From: a virus
IMG/VR virus record: IMGVR_UViG_3300012668_000254
Location: 1-38,028 of that record
Reading direction: 5' to 3' (one strand)
Length of the DNA: 38,028 nt
Under the pieces are notes generated by a model, which was not told the origin of the DNA, did not search any database, and saw nothing but the letters and a program-made list of their open reading frames with translations. Shown here piece after piece: positions 191 through 32,740 of the stretch (within the stretch, counting starts at the first letter, position 1; each line of letters opens with the position of its first letter). The translations under genes were made by a program, and so were the position numbers.

Positions 191-2911
191 ATGACAAAAT
201 TACTTCTCGGTGCTTTAGATAAAGGTTTACGTACAGATGTTACAGCTTTTAACATCGAAAATGAATCTTTTGCTAAACTTGTCAATGCTTATCAATGGCG
301 TGCAAGAATCAAACGTAAACGAGGTACAGCTCTACTTGGAAGATTAAATCGACAAATAAGTGCTTCTATTGTTTTAACTCTTAATGGCGGAACAGAAGCA
401 ATCTTACCAAATTTTCCCCTCGTTTTGGGCTCGATAAATCTCATAGGATCAGTTGACGGCACAACATATACTGATCCTTTGATGAATGGTACTTTAACTG
501 CGATAGGTGGTACAGGAACAGGAGGAACGATAAATTATTCCACTGGATTAATTCATATAAATTTAGGTGCAGGCGAAACATTAACAGGAACAATATTTTA
601 TTATCCAAATCTTCCTGTAATGGGTTTAGAAGATTTAGAATTAATTCCTTCCCAATTTCCAGGTACATTAGCTTTTGATACAAAATATTCTTATGATATA
701 GCTACAGCTAATCCTTATCCTATTACAGATGTTACTTTCTATAAAAATCCTGCATCTGGAACTTATCCAGGTTATATAGCAAAAACAACTTTAACACCTT
801 TCACTTGGAATGGACAAAACTACCAGCAATTTTGGTCTATAAATTCCCAAGGTGCTTTATTTGTAACTAATGGTATCACAATACCATTTACTACAACAAA
901 TATAGGTATGCAATTCAAGAAGATTACAGGAATTGCTATTAATTCTGCTGGTCCTCCAGCAATTGCAATGATAACAATTGCGGCTCATGGTTTAGTTATA
1001 GGTGATTTTGTTTTCATAAACGAAGTTTTGGGAATAACAGGAATAAACTTTCAGACTGGTTATGTTATCGCAGTTCCAAACTCAAATCAAATTCAAGTTG
1101 AATTCCCAAATGCAACTCTTGCAGGAGTATATTCTGCTAATACAGGAATAGCCCAATACCTAACAAATACGGCAGATGCAACGCGTGACCCCATAAGATT
1201 CTATGATGGTAGACCACAAGATGGAGGTCTTGGATGGGTTAATTTCTCACCCCCTTTATCACAACGTATATTTTCTGTCGCTGAATTACCACCGGCACAA
1301 TATTATCTAGTAGGTGCAAGAATAATAGCAGATTTTAAAGATCGTATTTTATTTTTAGGGTGTGTGGTTGAAAATTCAGGAGGGGGAATATTTTATCTAC
1401 CTGATACAATTATTTATAGTCAAAATGGTACGCCTTACTATACCGCATCATTTACAGGTGCTGTGGATTCTTCAGCAACTGTTTTCACTCCTATTTTAGT
1501 TCCAAACAATCAAACAGCAACAGCTCCAGCATGGTTTGAAGATGATACAGGTTTTGGCGGTTTTATATCTGCTGGTGTATCCCAACCTTTAACTACAGTT
1601 TCTTCCAATGAAGATGTACTGATTGTAGGGTTCTCTACATCAAAAGCTCGTCTTGTTTATCAAGGTAATGATCTAGTTCCGTTCTTATTTTACTTTATCA
1701 ATAGTGAACTTGGTGATGCTTCTACTTTTAGCATTATCGATATGGATAAAGGTTGTATATCACGAGGTACAAGAGGATATATAGTTACAAGCCAAAATCA
1801 GACTCAAAGAATTGATCTTGCTATTCCTGATCAAGTGTTCCAAATTGATCTTACAGATAATGGAAATGAACGTTTTACAGCGACTAGAAACTTCATTCAA
1901 GAATGGATATATTTCACTTATTGTGCTAATAATGATGCTGAGGGTATTTCAAATACAGCAATATTTCCTAATCAATCATTGTTTTATAATTATAGAGATA
2001 ACTCATGGGCTATATTCAATGAATCTTATACTACCTATGGTCAGTTCAGAAAACAAACAGGATTTACATGGCAAACAGTCGGTTTAATTTATAAAACATG
2101 GGAACAATGGAATGATGCTTGGAATGCAGGTACATCGACATTATTGCAAGAATTGACAATAGCTGGTAATCAACAAGGATTTGTGATTATTAAGGATGTT
2201 GGTACAAGTGAAGCAACTTCTCTATATATCACCTCTTTTTCTAATGGCACAAATGTTGTGACATCCCCTGATCATAATCTTAACAATAATGACTATATTA
2301 TCATATCTGGAGCATTAGGAACGGTTGGAGCATTAGTAAATGGAAAAATCTTTCAAGTTTTTAATGCTACAAGAAATACATTTATGCTTAAAGATGATCC
2401 AGGAATAACTACAGAAACATATCTTGGTGATGGTTTAATTACTGTTGCTTATGTTCCTTTCATACAAACTAAGCAATTTCCTATGGCATGGGAGATGGCA
2501 AGAAAAACAAGAATTGGTGTACAACAATATTTATTTACTAGAACAGATGATGCACAAGTAACTTTACAAATATATTTGAGTCAAAATGCTAATTTTAATT
2601 ATAGTTCTCCTTCTCTTCCTGTTACTTCGGATTCTAACGATGCGTTAATATACTCTCAAGTACTCTATACATGCCCTGAAAGCACAAATTTAGGTTTAAC
2701 TCCAGCTAATATAAATTTAAATACTCCAACGGCTGGACAACAAGCACAAATATGGCATAGAATGAATACAAGTCTTATTGGTGATACAGTACAAATAGGT
2801 ATTACATTATCAGATGCTCAAATGAGAGATTTGACTATTGGAAATGCTTTTGCTGAAATCGAGTTTCATGGAGCTATATTAGATTTATCAAGTAGCCAAC
2901 TTTTGTGTTGA
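191..2911 (+). CDS. Large virion or tail protein, 906 aa (nozzle or tail-tubular-B-like candidate), with two E1-FCCH-like small beta domains
   Basis: Long uninterrupted ORF in the structural block. Repeated motif xITxIxxxxPxxxxTxxxHxLxxGDxVxI (ITIAAHGLVIGDFVFINEV; VVTSPDHNLNNNDYIIISG), typical of phage tail and decoration proteins. Confidence 0.75.
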   Translation: MTKLLLGALDKGLRTDVTAFNIENESFAKLVNAYQWRARIKRKRGTALLGRLNRQISASIVLTLNGGTEAILPNFPLVLGSINLIGSVDGTTYTDPLMNGTLTAIGGTGTGGTINYSTGLIHINLGAGETLTGTIFYYPNLPVMGLEDLELIPSQFPGTLAFDTKYSYDIATANPYPITDVTFYKNPASGTYPGYIAKTTLTPFTWNGQNYQQFWSINSQGALFVTNGITIPFTTTNIGMQFKKITGIAINSAGPPAIAMITIAAHGLVIGDFVFINEVLGITGINFQTGYVIAVPNSNQIQVEFPNATLAGVYSANTGIAQYLTNTADATRDPIRFYDGRPQDGGLGWVNFSPPLSQRIFSVAELPPAQYYLVGARIIADFKDRILFLGCVVENSGGGIFYLPDTIIYSQNGTPYYTASFTGAVDSSATVFTPILVPNNQTATAPAWFEDDTGFGGFISAGVSQPLTTVSSNEDVLIVGFSTSKARLVYQGNDLVPFLFYFINSELGDASTFSIIDMDKGCISRGTRGYIVTSQNQTQRIDLAIPDQVFQIDLTDNGNERFTATRNFIQEWIYFTYCANNDAEGISNTAIFPNQSLFYNYRDNSWAIFNESYTTYGQFRKQTGFTWQTVGLIYKTWEQWNDAWNAGTSTLLQELTIAGNQQGFVIIKDVGTSEATSLYITSFSNGTNVVTSPDHNLNNNDYIIISGALGTVGALVNGKIFQVFNATRNTFMLKDDPGITTETYLGDGLITVAYVPFIQTKQFPMAWEMARKTRIGVQQYLFTRTDDAQVTLQIYLSQNANFNYSSPSLPVTSDSNDALIYSQVLYTCPESTNLGLTPANINLNTPTAGQQAQIWHRMNTSLIGDTVQIGITLSDAQMRDLTIGNAFAEIEFHGAILDLSSSQLLC

Positions 2912-2912
2912 T

Positions 2913-2947
2913 GTTAATCCATACACACTTATACAATATGGATTAAC
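2913..2947 (+). promoter_or_regulatory. Perfect 11-bp stem-loop immediately upstream of the HNH gene RBS
   Basis: gttaatccata / 13-nt loop / tatggattaac. No T-run follows, and GAGGA plus ATG 2959 come next. A TTGATG-18nt-TACAAT promoter-like pair overlaps the 5' arm and loop. Confidence 0.5.
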
Positions 2948-2958
2948 ATTGAGGATGT

Positions 2959-3555
2959 ATGGGAAAAAAAGTAAATTTTGAAAGTAAAGAATACCTTGAA
3001 AATAGAATAAAAAGTTTTTATGAAAAAATAAAAGTTGATAAAAATGGTTGTTGGTTGTGGCTCGGCGCAAATAACCAAAAATATGGAATAATAAGAATAA
3101 GAAAAACAAATATGGGTGCTCATAGGTTTTCTTATGAATATATAAAAAAAGAATCTATTGGTGATAAATTTGTCTGTCATAAATGTGATAATCCAATTTG
3201 TGTTAATCCTGATCATTTATTTTTAGGAACTCATAAAGACAACATGAAAGACGCTGTTGCAAAAAAAAGAATGGCATTTGGTGAGAAAGTTCATGGTAAT
3301 AGATTAAAAGAAAAAGAAATTAGAGAAATTCAAAGATTGATTAAAATAGGATTAAGTCAATCTCAAATTGCTAAAATATTTGATATTGAACAAACTAATA
3401 TTTCTCATATCAATTTAAATAGAAATTGGAAAAATTCAGAAAAATTAGAATATGATAGTGACATTTTAATTAAATGTATGATTTCTTTTTTTGGAGAGAT
3501 GGAAACTTATAAATTACTTCTTTTTTATGATAAAATGGTAAAAAGTTTAAAATAA
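2959..3555 (+). CDS. Free-standing HNH homing endonuclease (HNH_3 type with C-terminal HTH)
   Basis: NGCWLWLG...GAHRFSYE...CHKCDNPICVNPDHLFLGTHKDNMKD motif, then LSQSQIAKIFDIEQTNISHI (HTH). Inserted between two structural genes. Confidence 0.9.
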   Translation: MGKKVNFESKEYLENRIKSFYEKIKVDKNGCWLWLGANNQKYGIIRIRKTNMGAHRFSYEYIKKESIGDKFVCHKCDNPICVNPDHLFLGTHKDNMKDAVAKKRMAFGEKVHGNRLKEKEIREIQRLIKIGLSQSQIAKIFDIEQTNISHINLNRNWKNSEKLEYDSDILIKCMISFFGEMETYKLLLFYDKMVKSLK

Positions 3556-3556
3556 T

Positions 3557-4057
3557 ATGTTCAATATAGTCAATACAGTTCCTTTCTTAAAGACTTCAAG
3601 GAATTTTCCAGAAGATGCCGAGAATTTATCTACTGAACTTGATAAAACATACATAGAAATTGCACAAGCAGTAAATCTTAGAATCATTGGCATATTTTCA
3701 ATCAATCGTCCAAGTATTACTGGTGAATCGTGGTTTCTAACATCTTCTAGACAACAAACATTAAGACAAGTTTATTTAGTCCCAGGTGGAATAATTACTG
3801 GATCGACAATAGATTTAGGTTTTAAGATCATCAATATTTCACAATTTAGTCCTAAATGTTATGGAACTTTTACTAATGGAACAGATTGGTATGGATTAAT
3901 TTTTGGGAGCAATGTTTTAATTCCAGGTCAAATTTCATTTTTTCTTCATGTTAACGCAGGAAATCCACTCTCTGATCAAATTGTTTTTGAGGTTGATGGT
4001 TCATCACCAGCGATTACATCAGGAACCGTGTTAATTGAATGGATTAGTGATGTTTAA
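3557..4057 (+). CDS. Virion structural protein (hypothetical)
   Basis: ORF tightly packed after the HNH stop and lying in the structural block. No recognisable catalytic motif. Confidence 0.6.
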   Translation: MFNIVNTVPFLKTSRNFPEDAENLSTELDKTYIEIAQAVNLRIIGIFSINRPSITGESWFLTSSRQQTLRQVYLVPGGIITGSTIDLGFKIINISQFSPKCYGTFTNGTDWYGLIFGSNVLIPGQISFFLHVNAGNPLSDQIVFEVDGSSPAITSGTVLIEWISDV

Positions 4058-4089: not shown

Positions 4090-4719
4090 ATGGCATCATC
4101 ACTATATGGCGGTCAAGGCGCTTCTCCTTCTGGTCAAACTGGAATGAACACTTCTACAGGATTTTATAAAGAAAAAATTCCTAAAGGTTATGGTAAATTT
4201 AAAGTAGAACAATTCTCACCTGAGCAAATGGATCTTTATAAAAATAGTTTTGGGAATGTAGGACAAGACAGTTATTTATCAAAACTTGCTGGTGGTGATC
4301 AAGAAATGTTTGATCAAATAGAAGCACCTGCTCTTAGACAATTTAATCAACTTCAAGGTAATACAGCGTCAAGATTCTCTGGAATGGGATCAGGAGCAAG
4401 ACGCAGTAGTGGTTTTCAAAATGAAATGGGTCAACAATCATCTAATTTTGCACAGCAACTGCAAGCTCAACGTCAAGGACTCCAACAAAATGCTTTAAGA
4501 GATCTTCATACCATGTCTATGGAACTTCTAAATCAAAGACCATATGAAACCGGTTTATATGAAAAACCTCAAGGAACAGATTGGGGCCAAGTTATTGGAT
4601 CTTTTGGAGGTATGATTCCAGGAATGGCATCAGCTGCTTTTGGAAAAGGAAGTTTTGGAGGAGCTATAAATGGTGGAGCACAAGTAGCAAAAGCGATACC
4701 AGGATTTGGGAGGGTATAA
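4090..4719 (+). CDS. Gly/Gln/Ser-rich virion protein (internal or ejection protein candidate)
   Basis: GAGG RBS 6 nt upstream. Low-complexity G/Q/S-rich composition. Positioned before two large coiled-coil proteins, as in podovirus core-protein blocks. Confidence 0.65.
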   Translation: MASSLYGGQGASPSGQTGMNTSTGFYKEKIPKGYGKFKVEQFSPEQMDLYKNSFGNVGQDSYLSKLAGGDQEMFDQIEAPALRQFNQLQGNTASRFSGMGSGARRSSGFQNEMGQQSSNFAQQLQAQRQGLQQNALRDLHTMSMELLNQRPYETGLYEKPQGTDWGQVIGSFGGMIPGMASAAFGKGSFGGAINGGAQVAKAIPGFGRV

Positions 4720-5954
4720 TGGTTCAAGTATTAAAAAATAATCGTGGTCCATCATTTGGTGAACAATTTAGTTCAACTATTAATTCTATAGTTCCAACTA
4801 TTCAGCAACATATGAAGCAAGGTGATCAAAGACAAGCTATTGAAAAAATGGGGTTAGATCCATCAGTATTGCAACTTCCAGAACAAGCACAGGCAGAATA
4901 TTTCAAAAATGCTTTCAATCAATCAGGTGCAAATAAATCAAAAGAAATGGCCGATAAATTAGCATCAGATAGAAGACAACTTTATGGAGTTGGTAAATCT
5001 AGAGGTATGCAAGGAGATAAATTAGAAGAATTTGTTGATACTTATCAAGGTAATGTAAATTTAGGTGAGAAAGTTACGAAGCCTATTAAAGAAAATAAAC
5101 CTGCTCTTACAGAAAAAGAAGTTCCTACAAATATTTCTAGAAATATAAAAAAAATTCTCGCTGATAATCCAAAATCCACATCGGATGAATTAAGAATAGC
5201 AATGGATGAAGCAGGTATACCTCCAGTTTATTCGAATCCTTACACAGAAAATAGACGTCGTACCGAAGAAACATTAGGTAAACAAGAACAAGAAAAAACA
5301 AAAGAACTAAGACACGAGACATTACCTGTAAGACAAGAAATAGCAAAACGAGCATCATCAGCTGAAAAAGGAATTCAAAATAAAGAAGAACTTTTACAAA
5401 TAATAGAAAAAGGTAATATTGATGATCCTACATTTGCAGCCCTTGCAGAAGCATTACCAATGAAATTAGGTAAAAGACTGCTTTCTAATGATACAGTAGA
5501 ATATAAAGCAGGGCTAGTAGAAGAATTTGGAGATCTTAGAAATATATTTCAAGGCCAAACAAGAGTTAAAGAAATTGAATTATTAGAAGAAAAAATTGCA
5601 GATTTATATTTGACAGATGATCAAAAAAAGGCAATTCTGCGATCTAGAATAAATGCATTGAGAGCAGATATTATTAGAGCTGATGTTGCTGAAGAATTAG
5701 AAAATGAACCCTTAGGTATTCTTCAATTTGGAAATGAACTTGAAAAACGTGCAAAACCAAAATTACAGGCACTTTTTAATCAAATTTTAGATGAACAAAA
5801 ATCCATTATAGAAAATGCAGAGAATAGAAAGAAAATCCCACTAGATTTTAATGATCCTGATGATAAAAAAATTGCGGAATCAATTCTAAAAGAAGCAGGT
5901 GGAAATAGAAATGCTGCCAGAGAATTAGCTAAGAAAAAAGGGTATGTACTTTAA
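4719..5954 (+). CDS. Coiled-coil internal virion protein candidate (about 411 aa)
   Basis: The ATG overlaps the upstream stop (TAATG) at 4719, so the longer track ORF from 4581 is probably an out-of-gene extension. Lys/Glu-rich helical sequence. Confidence 0.65.
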   Translation: MVQVLKNNRGPSFGEQFSSTINSIVPTIQQHMKQGDQRQAIEKMGLDPSVLQLPEQAQAEYFKNAFNQSGANKSKEMADKLASDRRQLYGVGKSRGMQGDKLEEFVDTYQGNVNLGEKVTKPIKENKPALTEKEVPTNISRNIKKILADNPKSTSDELRIAMDEAGIPPVYSNPYTENRRRTEETLGKQEQEKTKELRHETLPVRQEIAKRASSAEKGIQNKEELLQIIEKGNIDDPTFAALAEALPMKLGKRLLSNDTVEYKAGLVEEFGDLRNIFQGQTRVKEIELLEEKIADLYLTDDQKKAILRSRINALRADIIRADVAEELENEPLGILQFGNELEKRAKPKLQALFNQILDEQKSIIENAENRKKIPLDFNDPDDKKIAESILKEAGGNRNAARELAKKKGYVL

Positions 5955-11962: not shown

Positions 11963-12180
11963 TAAGAATTGCTCTGAATAAACCTTCTCTGATTGACTCG
12001 GAAGCCCGATGGGGTGACGAGGGGCAAGTTTAAATACAGCCTGAACGACTGAGCGAGAGGGACTCGGAAACGAGTATGCAACAGTCTGAACACTACGGAT
12101 AACACCAAGGTAGTGAGGGAGATTCGAAGAAGTTTCCCCGCTCACAATATATTGTGAGTCATAAAAGTAACAGATCTCGG
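11963..12180 (+). ncRNA. ORF-less group I intron in the portal gene (about 218 nt)
   Basis: GC-rich structured island in AT-rich DNA. Elements seen: P1 (11957-62 / 11971-76); P3 ccttctc (11983-89) / gagaggg (12055-61); R-like gaacgactga; P8 hairpin actcg-GAAA-cgagt (12062-75); S-like acagtctgaac. The 3' tail ...ctcacaatatattgtgagtcataaaagtaacag is shared with the capsid introns. The exact 3' splice site (after G12180 vs G12173) is inferred from the reading frame. Confidence 0.75.
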
Positions 12181-29626: not shown

Positions 29627-29917
29627 ATGATTACGACAACAGGGAATTTGGGCCCTATGATCTTGCAGTCGCTTGCGCCTGCCATGTTATACGTTCCTAC
29701 TCCTACAATGAACTATATCACTATAGCAGACAAGGTTTCTATGCCTGCAAATGGTGGTACAACTTGCAGGTTTATGCGTCCACGTGCGCTTACTCCTCCA
29801 ACTATTCAACTTGGTAATGCGGGTATTGATCCCCCAGCCCAAGTGCCTCAAAGAGATATCATAGACGCACAAATGGCGTTTTTTGGAACAGGTGAAGAAG
29901 TTTACTCGTATGAAGTT
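29627..29917 (+). CDS. Major capsid protein, exon 1 (3' boundary approximate, 29911-29923)
   Basis: GAGG RBS. MITTTGNLGPMILQSLAPAML...MPANGGTTCRFMRPRALTPPTIQLGNAGIDPPAQVPQRDIIDAQMAFFGTGEEVYSYEV resembles HK97-fold (N4-gp56/T7-gp10-like) capsid N-terminal halves. The frame stops at 29924-26 with the C-terminal half missing. Confidence 0.7.
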
Positions 29918-29952
29918 TCTGCATAATTGATTTGATCATAATATGTAAACCA

Positions 29953-29961
29953 TGTTATAGT
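29953..29961 (+). promoter_or_regulatory. Extended -10-like TGTTATAGT upstream of the intron-1 endonuclease gene
   Basis: Lies 33 nt upstream of ATG 29994, followed by a GGAAGGA RBS. Weak evidence. Confidence 0.3.
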
Positions 29962-29993
29962 ATGACCAGTAAATTTAAAACTGGAAGGATTTC

Positions 29994-30914
29994 ATGGAAA
30001 GAAGTAAGGAAGATTTAATGTATTCATATGCTGCTGGAGCCATAGATGTCGATGGGTCAATTTACTTAGTAAAAGAAAGTAATTTGCATATCCCATTCAT
30101 TCAGTTGGTGAAAAAATTTGGCTCGCTTATCTCTTCATTTAAAAATGATTTTGGTGGTATGACAGGATCTTTAAAAGCAAGACAGCCTCATCATGCACCA
30201 CTTCATTATTGGAGATTAAAAGGTTCTGAAAATTGCAGAGACTTTCTTTTGAAAGTTGTTCAATTTTTAGTCTATAAGAAGGAAAGGGCTGAAGTTTTGT
30301 CTGAATATATTGAAAAGAATCCATTTGTGAGAGGAAAAACACTTAGCGTTGAACAGTTAATTGAGCGTGAAAAGTACCATGTTAAATTAGGCACATTAAA
30401 TGATGAAGCTTATTTAAAAAACATCTCCATGACAGCAAAAACTCATCAGAATACTTATGATGAGGCTTTTTGGTCATATGTAGCGGGTGTTATGGATACT
30501 GACGGTTCATTTTCTGTAAAAAGACAAAAAGGGCATTCTGAAACAAAAAACCTTCGATATATACCCTGCATTCAAATGTCTATGGCATCCTTAAATGTCA
30601 TAAACCACATAAGAAAAAACTGTATATTTGGTACCGTCTGTGTAGTCAAAAATAAAAGTTGCTCACGTGGGTTTCATTATTCCTGGAGTATTGGTAAGAA
30701 GCAGGATTCTGCTGAATTTATCGAAAAGATTCTTCCTTATTTAAAAGAAAAAAAAGATCAAGCAATGATTCTTTTAGACTTTTGCAAAAATGCAGAAAAC
30801 ACAAAATTTTGCAAAGCAGGGATTTCTGAAAAGGAATTAGAGTTTAGAGAATCATGTTATCAAAAAATTGTAGCATTAAATAAGAGAGGCAGCCTGTTGT
30901 GTGAAACTCAATAA
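29994..30914 (+). CDS. Double-motif LAGLIDADG homing endonuclease
   Basis: Two dodecapeptide motifs: YAAGAIDVDGSIYL and YVAGVMDTDGSFSV. 306 aa. Out of frame with the capsid exon. Confidence 0.9.
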   Translation: MERSKEDLMYSYAAGAIDVDGSIYLVKESNLHIPFIQLVKKFGSLISSFKNDFGGMTGSLKARQPHHAPLHYWRLKGSENCRDFLLKVVQFLVYKKERAEVLSEYIEKNPFVRGKTLSVEQLIEREKYHVKLGTLNDEAYLKNISMTAKTHQNTYDEAFWSYVAGVMDTDGSFSVKRQKGHSETKNLRYIPCIQMSMASLNVINHIRKNCIFGTVCVVKNKSCSRGFHYSWSIGKKQDSAEFIEKILPYLKEKKDQAMILLDFCKNAENTKFCKAGISEKELEFRESCYQKIVALNKRGSLLCETQ

Positions 30915-31241
30915 GGTTAGAGATCACATAAAACTTGGCTATATGCTGGAAACCCCTAAAACCTTCGGTACCTAAATGGTGACAATCTGAAGGATATTAC
31001 AATGGGCAATCAGCAGGGAAGACTCGAAAGAGAACCCTCAACGACTACACGCCAGGCACTCTGTAACCGCAGAAGTGAAGATATAGTCTGAACAGTGGTG
31101 AGAGCCATTGAGAGAGGAATAACAAGACTCTCCGCCTAGAAATAGGTCACAAAAGTAACAGTTAGTGCATTATAAATGAGCAAGTTATTTTGCAAGATCA
31201 AGAGGGTGAAGGACTTACGTTCGAAATGTACGCCCTCTTAG

Positions 31242-31310
31242 CTGTGGCGTAAATTGGTACTAGCTTGGGTATCCGAAAGGTTAGCCGTAGCTATGCGTCA
31301 AGCCGAGGAT
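31242..31310 (+). CDS. Major capsid protein, exon 2 (69-nt mini-exon)
   Basis: The only open frame ending at the P1 junction gives LWRKLVLAWVSERLAVAMRQAED, which continues seamlessly into exon 3 (LLILRDYIV...). This fits the conserved capsid pattern L-G-x-x-x-A-x-x-x-D-x-x-x-x-R-D. The 5' boundary could be 31242, 31245 or 31248. Confidence 0.6.
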
Positions 31311-32134
31311 TAACTTTAAGTCCTCGATAAATCTAACCTGATTGACTTGGAAACCCTTATCACCCGTGTGAAAGGGCAACAAGGGGCAAGTGTTTAATTA
31401 GTATTGTAAGGAATCAAAGTGTTCAATATCTGCTTTAAGAAAACCTTTTGCGTTGAGTCTAGACATCTCAACTCTCATGTCTTCTCGAAGGGCGATGATT
31501 TCGGGATCAAGAGGAGCGTGTGCGCCACATCCTTTTTGATTTTCATAGGACTTTCTAAACTCGATCATAATCTCACATTGTCTTTTCTTAAGAACAAGAT
31601 AAGGCAAAACTTGAGTACAAATGTCGAGAAGACGATGACCTTGAACAACCCATTCATAAATCCATCGCTCATGAGTGGAATTTTTCTTAAAAATAGATCG
31701 CTTATGTTTCTTAGATTTATTGAGATTGCCAAAATGCAACTCAATCCAATCAAAAAGTTCCTTTTTTGTATTAGAAATGTTGAGTACAGCTCTAAAGTTT
31801 GGGTTTTGGTATCGGTTATACTTCGCGGGATTAACACGATAAATACACAAAGAGCCTTCACCATCAATAATACCTGCAAGGTAAGCAAGTATGAGAGGTT
31901 TATAAATCTTTTTTTTGTATTCAATTATAGGCATTCACATTCTCCTTTGTTATGTGTGTAGGTGCGTGTATATTGTTGCATAAAACTAATTAAATGTACA
32001 GCCTGATCGACTTAGCGGTTGGAATGTAGAAATACATATGCGAAAGTCAGAACTCGAACTATAAATAAAATTCGAGAGGGAGATCCGAAGAGGTCACCCC
32101 GCTCACAGTATATTGTGAGTCATAAAGTAACAGG
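31311..32134 (+). mobile_element. Group I intron 2 in the capsid gene, with an antisense LAGLIDADG gene in the P6 loop
   Basis: P1: exon gaggat (31305-10) / gtcctc with a U-G at the junction. P3 ctaacc / ggttgg. P6 extended stem tttaattag (31393-401) / ctaattaaa (31986-94). P8 atgta-GAAA-tacat. The 3' tail ccccgctcacagtatattgtgagtcataaagtaacagg is nearly identical to the portal intron. Confidence 0.75.
31398..31934 (-). CDS. Single-motif LAGLIDADG homing endonuclease, encoded antisense to its host intron
   Basis: YLAGIIDGEGSLCI motif, 178 aa. Own AAGGAG RBS on the minus strand. Its stop codon lies inside the P6 stem. Confidence 0.85.
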   Translation of the reverse strand: MPIIEYKKKIYKPLILAYLAGIIDGEGSLCIYRVNPAKYNRYQNPNFRAVLNISNTKKELFDWIELHFGNLNKSKKHKRSIFKKNSTHERWIYEWVVQGHRLLDICTQVLPYLVLKKRQCEIMIEFRKSYENQKGCGAHAPLDPEIIALREDMRVEMSRLNAKGFLKADIEHFDSLQY

Positions 32135-32740
32135 TTGTTAATTTTACGCGATTACATCGTTTCAGCCGCTTCCGAAATTATGGCCGGTGGTGGTTCAAAT
32201 AATGATAATCCAACTAACCTTGGTATCAGTGATTTTAGCTTAGTTGCTACTACTCTTGATACAAATAACGCTTATAAGTTTATGAGTGGTATTGAAGGTA
32301 TGGATAGATTCGGTACAGGTCCTGTTAGATCAGCATATTTTATGCTATCGTCTACAGAATTGCAAACCGATTTTGATGGATTAGTAGGCCAAGGGTTTAA
32401 AAACCAATGGGACTATCCAACAAATGCTAGTGCTTTGCCATCTGAGTATGGTTCTGTATTTAACGTACGTATTTTGACATCGTCAGAGGCTCCTGTAGCT
32501 CGTGGTGCATCTGCTAATGGTCAGGATGTTTACTATAATACCGTTGCTGGTAAGCAAGCATTGACACACGTAAATCAAGATGGATACTCAATGAATCTGA
32601 TTTATCGTGACCCATATTATTCAGGAATGTTGGCTCAAAATGCGACTTTAGCAGTTAAATTTGCTCAAGCTCAAGCTTTGACTCAAGATACAGCGATCAG
32701 AAACCTATTATCAACACGTTTAGCAGTATTAAATTACTAA
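32135..32740 (+). CDS. Major capsid protein, exon 3
   Basis: Has no start codon or RBS of its own; the track's TTG is fortuitous. LLILRDYIVSAASEIMAGGG...VFNVRILTSSEAP...ATLAVKFAQAQALTQDTAIRNLLST resembles C-terminal halves of HK97-fold capsid proteins. Confidence 0.75.
   Translation: MLILRDYIVSAASEIMAGGGSNNDNPTNLGISDFSLVATTLDTNNAYKFMSGIEGMDRFGTGPVRSAYFMLSSTELQTDFDGLVGQGFKNQWDYPTNASALPSEYGSVFNVRILTSSEAPVARGASANGQDVYYNTVAGKQALTHVNQDGYSMNLIYRDPYYSGMLAQNATLAVKFAQAQALTQDTAIRNLLSTRLAVLNY

Follow-up and report, generated by a model that had tools for sequence, protein, structure and literature searches.

The stretch of DNA analysed here, hereafter the window, is the 38,028-nucleotide (nt) IMG/VR virus record IMGVR_UViG_3300012668_000254, a podovirus-like phage genome of ∼38 kb. 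Its major capsid gene, which spans positions 29627-32740 and encodes a phrog_1357 major head protein, is interrupted by introns, and the second of these, capsid intron 2, contains a LAGLIDADG homing endonuclease gene on the opposite strand. The arrangement is probably best explained as a mobile group I intron that carries, in the terminal loop of its helix P6a, an autonomous opposite-strand expression cassette, over which the capsid-sense frame would be translated. The features on which this interpretation is based are the following.

31257-31310, plus strand: capsid exon 3, codons V106-D123 (VLAWVSERLAVAMRQAED), placed by tblastn coordinates and the homologs P0107, P0113 and P0118
31311-32137, plus strand: capsid intron 2, 827 nt, with junctions from homologs and core covariation
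32138-32740, plus strand: capsid exon 4, LILRDY... to the stop codon, placed by homolog comparison and phrog_1357
31398-31934, minus strand: LAGLIDADG homing endonuclease gene, 178 amino acids (aa), single-motif, I-CreI/I-MsoI type
31947-31942, minus strand: ribosome-binding site AAGGAG, 7 nt before the ATG
31980-31972, minus strand: extended -10 element TGcAACAAT, in a conserved block
32000-31995, minus strand: -35 element TGTACA, separated by 17 nt from the -10 element and sharing 31997-31999 with the 3' arm of P6a
31393-31401, plus strand: 5' arm of a 9-bp closing stem, UUUAAUUAG, which holds the complement of the endonuclease stop codon
31986-31994, plus strand: 3' arm of the closing stem, CUAAUUAAA
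31419-31961, plus strand: open capsid-sense frame with GTG start, 180 codons and TAG stop, codon-aligned with the endonuclease gene

Capsid homologs without interruptions, 321-325 aa long, have the sequence ..AQMAFFGTG CIINEQVILQDQEG VLAWVSERLAVAMRQAED LILRDY.., and joining position 31310 to 32138 in the window yields ..RQAED-LILRDY.., matching these homologs (..RQAED|LILRDY). Intron 2 opens with a TAA in frame with the exon, and its final nucleotide is G. In the close relative L016, an in-frame join is possible only after GTAACAGTTTG. On the basis of the uninterrupted homologs and the L016 reading frame, the intron is concluded to end at G32137 with a length of 827 nt. A preliminary description of this DNA had ended the intron at 32134 and counted 585 nt between the stem arms; both values required correction (the latter to 584 nt), whereas the sequence strings, the stem, the open reading frame (ORF), the AAGGAG motif and the position of the stop codon within the stem were all upheld.

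The 5' splice site lies after U31310, and U31310.G31320 forms the U.G pair of P1, the exon arm of which is provided by the last 8 nt of exon 3. The following helices, all on the plus strand, make up the ribozyme.

31303-31310 with 31320-31326: P1, exon CCGAGGAU with GUCCUCG
31320-31326: internal guide, the P1 3' arm GUCCUCG, which pairs with exon CGAGGAU at 31304-31310
31332-31338: P3 5' arm UCUAACC, which pairs with GGUUGGA at 32017-32023; six of the seven P3 pairs change on both sides
31346-31349 with 31380-31383: P4, around P5 (31354-31357 with 31373-31376), from RNAalifold
31384-31387 and 31390-31392: P6 5' arm GGGC and P6a 5' arm GUG
31986-32004: 3' arm of the closing stem (31986-31994), UG bulge, P6a 3' arm UAC (31997-31999) and P6 3' arm GCCU (32001-32004)
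32009-32012 with 32045-32048: P7, GACU with AGUC, around the P3 3' arm (32017-32023) and P8
32024-32027 with 32034-32037: P8, which covaries, like P3
32053-32058 with 32071-32076, and 32078-32085 with 32092-32099: P9 and P9.1
within 32053-32137: terminal hairpin, then GUAACAGGUUG, ending at G32137

The core was folded with RNAalifold as an alignment of 42 family members, comprising 40 diverse relatives, an ORF-less intron of the window's portal gene and intron 2 with its insert replaced by GAAA. This revealed the canonical order P3, P4, P5, P6, P6a, P8, P9 and P9.1, with changes on both sides in 31 of the 42 core pairs. In relatives, P6 GGGC/GCCU is replaced by GGCC/GGCU and P6a GUG/UAC by GGG/UCU. 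The candidate P7 of intron 2 lies at the expected position, and the J8/7-P7 segment resembles that of capsid intron 1, a group I intron by Rfam (79 bits). Intron 2, which interrupts a capsid gene of the N4-gp56 type, belongs to group I and is predicted to self-splice with guanosine.

11963-12180, plus strand: ORF-less portal intron, a member of the same family in which the P6a loop is short (GGGGCAAGUUUAAAUACAGCC); 3' end from the reading frame

The portal string GGGGCAAGTTTAAATACAGCC occurs once, at 12021-12041. With its insert removed, intron 2 is ∼79% identical both to the portal intron and to the ORF-less intron of L352, which together with the covarying core bears out the proposed homology of the capsid and portal introns. 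With a DNA pattern taken from the 5' core, at least 120 relatives lacking an ORF were recovered from viral contigs (L175-L294), in which this group I subfamily is abundant.

Capsid intron 2 reads GGGGCAAGTG-TTTAATTAG (31393-31401)...CTAATTAAA (31986-31994)-TGTACAGCC, with 584 nt (31402-31985) between the two stem arms. In ORF-less relatives, P6a is closed exactly at the insert position by a short GAAA-type loop, for example GCGAAAGC or GUUUAAAUAC. Compensatory changes in the closing stem are present in L015 (TTTAACTAA/TTAGTTAAA) and L024 (TTTAAATAG/CTATTTAAA), and the stem, P6 and P6a are together 96.9% paired in eight distinct relatives, with five pairs changed on both sides. This pairing is not due to chance, as it was matched in none of 500 shuffles, and no slid register lies near. 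The insert is the terminal loop of P6a; the preliminary description had assigned it to a peripheral loop, and the folding of the 42-member alignment agrees.

The capsid junction occupied by intron 2 varies among relatives: some have no intron there, L352 and L303 have an empty-loop intron of 204-205 nt, and others have an intron with different small sense ORFs in the loop. Empty-loop introns, which the preliminary description had proposed should be sought, were thus found at the very same capsid site, and intron-less capsid alleles are common. In L001/L015, L004/L018 and L008/L024, the intron sits 6 nt upstream, after ..RQA rather than ..RQAED; the guide has been re-matched to the exon (CAGGCU/GGCCUG) and the endonuclease gene is also present. 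This looks like a short-range shift of site.

At the same site and in the same P6a loop, small sense-strand ORFs replace the endonuclease cassette in L354, L401 and L407. Those of L354 and L401 contain paired CxxC motifs and are mini-zinc-ribbon-like, and the loop ORFs that were traced (L354 and L407) continue into P6'/P7. P6a seems to serve generally as a site for cargo.

The endonuclease ORF lies wholly inside the intron and on the strand opposite to the capsid gene, from its ATG at 31934-31932 to a stop codon at 31400-31398 within the 5' stem arm. The encoded protein contains the motif YLAGIIDGEGS and matches phrog_5046 (1e-22). A profile of 37 homologs searched against the PDB matched I-MsoI at 1e-10 over positions 8-159 of 169 and I-CreI at ∼1e-8 to 1e-9, and some homologs have a precomputed match to PF00961. 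E26, the equivalent of I-CreI D20, is nearly invariant among the homologs, and K116, the equivalent of K98, is invariant, as are D24 and G27. The database holds 106 homologs of the ORF and IMG/VR more than 350 relatives confirmed by tblastn; over 100 homologs are full-length (157-190 aa). Among nine close relatives, the median ratio of nonsynonymous to synonymous substitution rates (dN/dS) is 0.09 at a dS of 0.26-1.8. A tblastn search against phages returned only distant genes, from Streptomyces, Xylella and Caulobacter phages; at the three loci inspected these appear to be free-standing and co-oriented with their neighbours, and they are uninformative on orientation.

Strong purifying selection and the retention of catalytic residues identify the protein as a maintained enzyme rather than a relic, consistent with the initial view of the ORF as a genuine single-motif LAGLIDADG gene. 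A decaying relic, intact here by chance in an immobile intron, might be suspected from the absence of a PF00961 match to the protein at E<=0.01 and from a variant base in the conserved AGUCUG of the core. This is very improbable, however, given the number of full-length homologs, their dN/dS, the conservation of promoter and ribosome-binding site described below, the polymorphism of the site for the intron and the movement of the intron by 6 nt with a re-matched guide; the frameshifts or stops that would be expected in most close relatives were not seen. The maintained enzyme most likely cuts the intron-less allele and would home, a prediction indirectly supported by the occurrence of intron-less, ORF-less and ORF-containing alleles at one site.

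Intron-borne homing endonuclease genes are, in the textbook arrangement, co-oriented with the host gene, and the preliminary description had taken this to be the normal state. The phage group analysed here departs from it. The ORF is antisense to the capsid gene in all ten close loci, and of 80 wider loci, 69 have intron core motifs within 900 nt, exclusively on the opposite strand. When all large inserts in capsid genes were searched with a profile, 31 distinct LAGLIDADG genes were recovered, 24 antisense and 7 sense, both single- and double-motif and at ten or more intron sites. Antisense is the majority layout in this phage group, although the layout itself has precedents.

Upstream of the endonuclease gene, the -35 and extended -10 elements are predicted to form a sigma-70-type promoter with a transcript start near 31965, within the interval (31940-31990) in which a minus-strand start had been anticipated. 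In nearly all homologs, a -35 box is followed after 17 nt by TATAAT, TACAAT or TGnAACAAT ending 36-37 nt before the ATG, the -35 box taking the forms TGGACA, TAGACA, TGTACA, TTGTCA or TTGACA at the same place. This box is the complement of the P6a 3' arm and adjoins the complement of GGCTGAACGAC / GGCUGAACGAC. At the same position as in the window, most homologs also have a ribosome-binding motif rich in purines, namely AGGAG, AAGGA or a weaker form. No phage RNA polymerase gene was found among the window's large ORFs. Two other promoter candidates were rejected: the best minus-strand hit of a promoter scan ends inside the ORF, and the motif ATGCAACAATATACA does not act as a repeated phage promoter in the window.

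The conserved promoter implies convergent transcription, and ∼540 nt of the minus-strand transcript would be perfectly complementary to the capsid pre-mRNA; with no terminator after the ORF, the transcript may also enter the upstream exons. It might accordingly be supposed, along the lines of the preliminary description, that the main role of this transcript is to modulate splicing or capsid expression as an antisense RNA, with endonuclease coding being secondary. An antisense RNA alone, however, would need neither a dN/dS of 0.09 nor the retained catalytic residues. Moreover, the occurrence of empty or differently loaded loops and of intron-less alleles indicates that the capsid gene needs no such regulator, and the purge of sense-strand stops described below looks like damage limitation rather than regulation. 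A mainly regulatory role is therefore considered improbable; selection at the protein level, and the fact that the cargo is dispensable at one and the same site, favour a cassette that serves mainly for homing.

The capsid-sense strand of the insert shows a second conserved property. AAGGA at 31408-31412 sits 6 nt upstream of the GTG (31419) that opens the 180-codon frame, and the endonuclease gene, with 18 Leu and 8 Ser codons, contains a single TTA, CTA or TCA codon, whereas the codon usage of the phage itself, with TTA at 46% of Leu and TCA at 30% of Ser codons, predicts 12.2 (P ∼1e-6). In contrast, the sense-oriented homolog of intron 1, which serves as an internal control, contains 21 such codons against 22.5 expected, and all other genes of the window have 2.9-9.6 per 100 codons. 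Across the 24 distinct antisense genes, the median number of stops per 100 codons was 0.33 in the aligned sense frame and 7.6 in the other two frames, compared with 6.5 in the aligned frame of the 7 sense-oriented genes, and the aligned frame was open in 23 of the 24. In most cases an ATG preceded by a ribosome-binding site opens the frame at the insert's 5' edge, and 80-100% of the non-core part is covered. The capsid-sense frame is thus open because antisense endonuclease genes have been purged of TTA, CTA and TCA codons, which suggests that the two strands have been made compatible. This strand-specific codon rule looks new; no paper was found that describes a stop-free sense frame over an antisense gene.

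Such a frame, open in nearly all relatives and usually equipped with a ribosome-binding site and ATG, could in principle be a real gene with a functional protein, overlapping the endonuclease gene in a dual-coding arrangement. The sense peptide is, however, unconstrained in amino-acid sequence (dN/dS 1.27), its composition is that given by the antisense strand of a normal gene, and no sign of a conserved protein was seen in the frame, the homology searches having covered the minus-strand endonuclease alone. This possibility can scarcely be entertained.

Less readily dismissed, yet still unlikely, is that the open frame is an untranslated by-product of codon choice in the endonuclease gene, reflecting for example the tRNA supply at the time of expression. 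Translation of the sense frame is not directly evidenced, the peptide is not conserved, several lineages have a weak ribosome-binding site or none and seven distant homologs do not have the property. Against a by-product stands the phage's codon usage, TTA being its commonest Leu codon and TCA being frequent for Ser, and its minus-strand recombination genes use TTA, CTA and TCA normally, as does the sense-oriented homolog. The avoidance is also restricted to one frame: out of frame these triplets are plentiful, and the two remaining frames contain 7-24 stops. Even though synonymous change is close to saturation, the avoidance persists in genes with one and with two motifs, at ten or more intron sites, and none of the seven sense-oriented genes shows it.

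The simplest reading of the stop-free frame is that ribosomes must run over the insert on the capsid pre-mRNA. Possible reasons for their passage include protection from Rho or RNase, avoidance of misfolding between insert and core, and keeping the sense and antisense RNAs apart. The insert composition shows no Rho-site signature, and because it is neither C-rich nor G-poor, nothing points specifically to Rho; a literature search on Rho or translation effects in phage introns found nothing relevant. We lean, by a modest degree, towards a backwards cassette combined with a translated, sequence-indifferent "spacer" frame as a general design rule for antisense cargo in phage introns.

The extent of the open frame differs in some loci. 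In the pair L006/L020, both in-frame TAA codons at the intron start are mutated in L020, and the exon frame crosses the 5' core and the whole insert. In L029, L043, L057 and L059, the open sense frame crosses the 3' core into the next exon, giving 430-460 codons.

Taken together with the predicted activities, the organization of intron 2 can be accommodated in the following scheme. Host RNA polymerase would start, probably early in infection, at the sigma-70-type promoter, the -35 box of which doubles as the P6a 3' arm. Leftward transcription would yield a short-leader mRNA for the 178-aa endonuclease, which is expected to be homodimeric; its most likely substrates are the intron-less capsid alleles carried by co-infecting relatives, cleaved around ..GCCGAGGAT|TTAATTTTA... 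Repair would then copy the intron in, and the phage carries its own RecT and YqaJ. On the capsid transcript, P6, P6a and the 9-bp stem would loop the 584-nt insert out, so that the ribozyme core could fold and splice. With the gene reversed, a long part of the capsid-sense RNA would go untranslated; selection has stripped the aligned sense frame of stops (TTA, CTA and TCA in the endonuclease gene) and kept a ribosome-binding site and start codon at the 5' edge, and by virtue of these changes ribosomes probably cross the insert, halting ∼25 nt before the 3' stem arm. The peptide itself would be meaningless.

Several observations weigh against this scheme. The phage is known from metagenomes alone. 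P7 is invariant across the family and shows no covariation, and for this reason it was assigned from its position and its likeness to Rfam-positive intron 1. The Rfam model RF00028 misses intron 2 and its ORF-less relatives at the gathering threshold and even at E<=10; with Rfam silent on intron 2 and the portal intron, group I status rests on structure and covariation. Position 32049 (plus strand) is A in the window (AGUCAG) and in L015, where 41 of the 42 aligned members have U and read AGUCUG after J8/7. No Pfam family, PF00961 (LAGLIDADG_1) included, matched the endonuclease protein at E<=0.01. The -10 element of the window is weak (AACAAT), its promoter matching at 8 of 12 positions plus the TG, the consensus promoter scan did not report the conserved promoter, and a terminator for the minus-strand transcript was not found. 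With regard to the sense frame, the ORF of the window begins with GTG rather than ATG, seven more distant homologs do not have an open frame, the insert composition offers no Rho-site signature as noted above, and the open frame of some relatives enters the ribozyme core or the next exon, where heavy translation would clash with folding.

Several features of intron 2 recall the T4 td intron. The td endonuclease I-TevI is a GIY-YIG enzyme co-oriented with td and controlled by late promoters, sequestration of the ribosome-binding site and autorepression, and the conflict between translation and ribozyme folding is handled by sequence design. Unlike in td, the gene in the window is reversed and encodes a LAGLIDADG enzyme, and the sense strand carries an open frame of irrelevant sequence. 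As in the window, the td cargo is looped out, the I-TevI gene lying in a P6 extension (P6a loop) with its own promoter (see also PMC2988022, PMC3073962).

The closest phage precedent is LittleE (JF937101), which has a ∼820-bp group I intron in its capsid gene with a 177-aa I-CreI-like LAGLIDADG protein, gp14, encoded on the bottom strand (PMC3706429); its splicing was demonstrated by reverse transcription PCR and N-terminal sequencing (Pope et al. 2013, PMC3706429). LittleE also resembles the window in having a related ORF-less intron in another structural gene. However, the two proteins share the motif region only and gp14 is not a close homolog, and the LittleE ORF (3065-3598) lies 3' of the Rfam core (2859-3062), in the P9 region, rather than in P6a. 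The LittleE paper reports no promoter and no sense-frame analysis (PMC3706429), and LittleE is an isolated example, whereas most members of the large family analysed here are antisense. Antisense His-Cys genes with an internal promoter are also found in nuclear ribosomal DNA introns, namely I-DirII (Dir.S956-2) and I-DsqI (Dsq.L2066) (PMC3073962, PMC9548176). These likewise run opposite to both host gene and ribozyme but are eukaryotic, with RNA polymerase II and I compartments, polyadenylation and spliceosomal introns, and belong to the His-Cys box rather than the LAGLIDADG family; because their host gene is for ribosomal RNA (rRNA), sense-strand translation is no issue for them. With these precedents, LittleE gp14 (PMC3706429) and I-DirII and I-DsqI (PMC3073962, PMC9548176), the antisense layout is not the exception that the preliminary description had made of it. 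To these, the present analysis adds an antisense layout that is the norm, a promoter merged with P6a and a sense frame free of stops.

In protein architecture, the endonuclease is like the homodimers I-CreI, I-MsoI and I-CvuI, with one LAGLIDADG motif in ∼160-180 aa. Those enzymes are sense-encoded in chloroplast 23S rRNA introns, and their sequence identity to the window protein is low. The predicted target of the window enzyme differs from the I-CreI-type comparison in being a capsid codon junction that is not obviously palindromic.

A large group of uncultured phages therefore has, as its norm, the reverse of the textbook co-oriented layout. Its signature, a promoter fused to a ribozyme helix and a stop-free sense frame, points to a constraint that obliges long insertions within introns to remain translatable when the host gene is late and strongly expressed. 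For annotation, a "hypothetical protein" that looks coding and lies within a capsid gene may only mirror an endonuclease gene on the other strand, and as this intron family is invisible to Rfam, split capsid genes are mis-called in metagenomic phage catalogues.

Besides the N4-gp56-family major capsid gene, the window contains genes for a P22-type portal, a large terminase, Rep-O, RecT and YqaJ. No match was obtained when the locus (megablast) and the capsid protein (tblastn) were searched against 50,697 phage records, but metagenomes hold hundreds of relatives of the window phage. The remainder of the capsid gene upstream of exon 3 is organized as follows.

to 29893, plus strand: capsid exon 1
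29894-31165, plus strand: capsid intron 1, 1272 nt, Rfam group I at 79 bits
31166-31207, plus strand: capsid exon 2
31208-31256, plus strand: 49-nt insert between capsid codons G105 and V106

The ORF of intron 1 (29994-30914) is sense-oriented and encodes a 306-aa double-motif LAGLIDADG protein that is homologous to the antisense ORF of intron 2 and likewise matches phrog_5046. Capsid genes of the phage group (loci L313-L416) are extremely intron-rich. In an unbiased sample, 47 of 91 capsid genes had one to five large inserts, at ∼25 or more codon positions.

The 49-nt insert lies 54 nt upstream of intron 2, breaks the frame and has no ribozyme core. It forms a P1-like hairpin between AAGAGGGU (31200-31207) and GCCCUCUU (31232-31239) with U.G at the junction, a second arm pairs with the downstream exon, and the terminal nucleotide is G; its removal would join CAAGAGGGT|GTACTAGCT. 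Relatives of this insert were found in L294, L036, L015-L024 and L295-L312, and in many relatives homologous or analogous inserts, 32-65 nt long, are located at three positions of the capsid gene: behind G89, within codon I93 and behind G105. Every one of them follows an exon U, which closes, as U.G, a hairpin with a stretch complementary to its own exon. All end in G, the arm for the downstream exon covaries with exon variants, none has a ribozyme core and precise removal restores the canonical protein. Mini-inserts were present in 9 of the 91 capsid genes of the unbiased sample, and all nine also carry a large intron, as do all 18 informative carriers retrieved by pattern.

Two other explanations of the 49-nt insert were rejected. 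A hop of the gene-60 type between matched codons would resume in the wrong frame. A +1 frameshift at GCR-UAA-R could account for the window, L294, L005 and L007 but fails for other carriers, namely the 32- and 33-nt inserts at site 93 (L001 and L002) and the 41-nt type at site 89 (L008/L024). From their sequence features, the mini-inserts look like core-less group I mini-introns. It is conceivable, and is put forward tentatively, that the 49-nt element is a helper-dependent, non-autonomous mini-intron spliced by the core of intron 2 or of another full intron in the same pre-mRNA. If true, intron 2, with its spacer frame and as a helper ribozyme, would be more than a selfish passenger.

Elsewhere in the window, the plus-strand ORFs 4090-4719 and 4581-5954 overlap by ∼140 nt in different frames and might represent another gene broken by a small insert or a frameshift.

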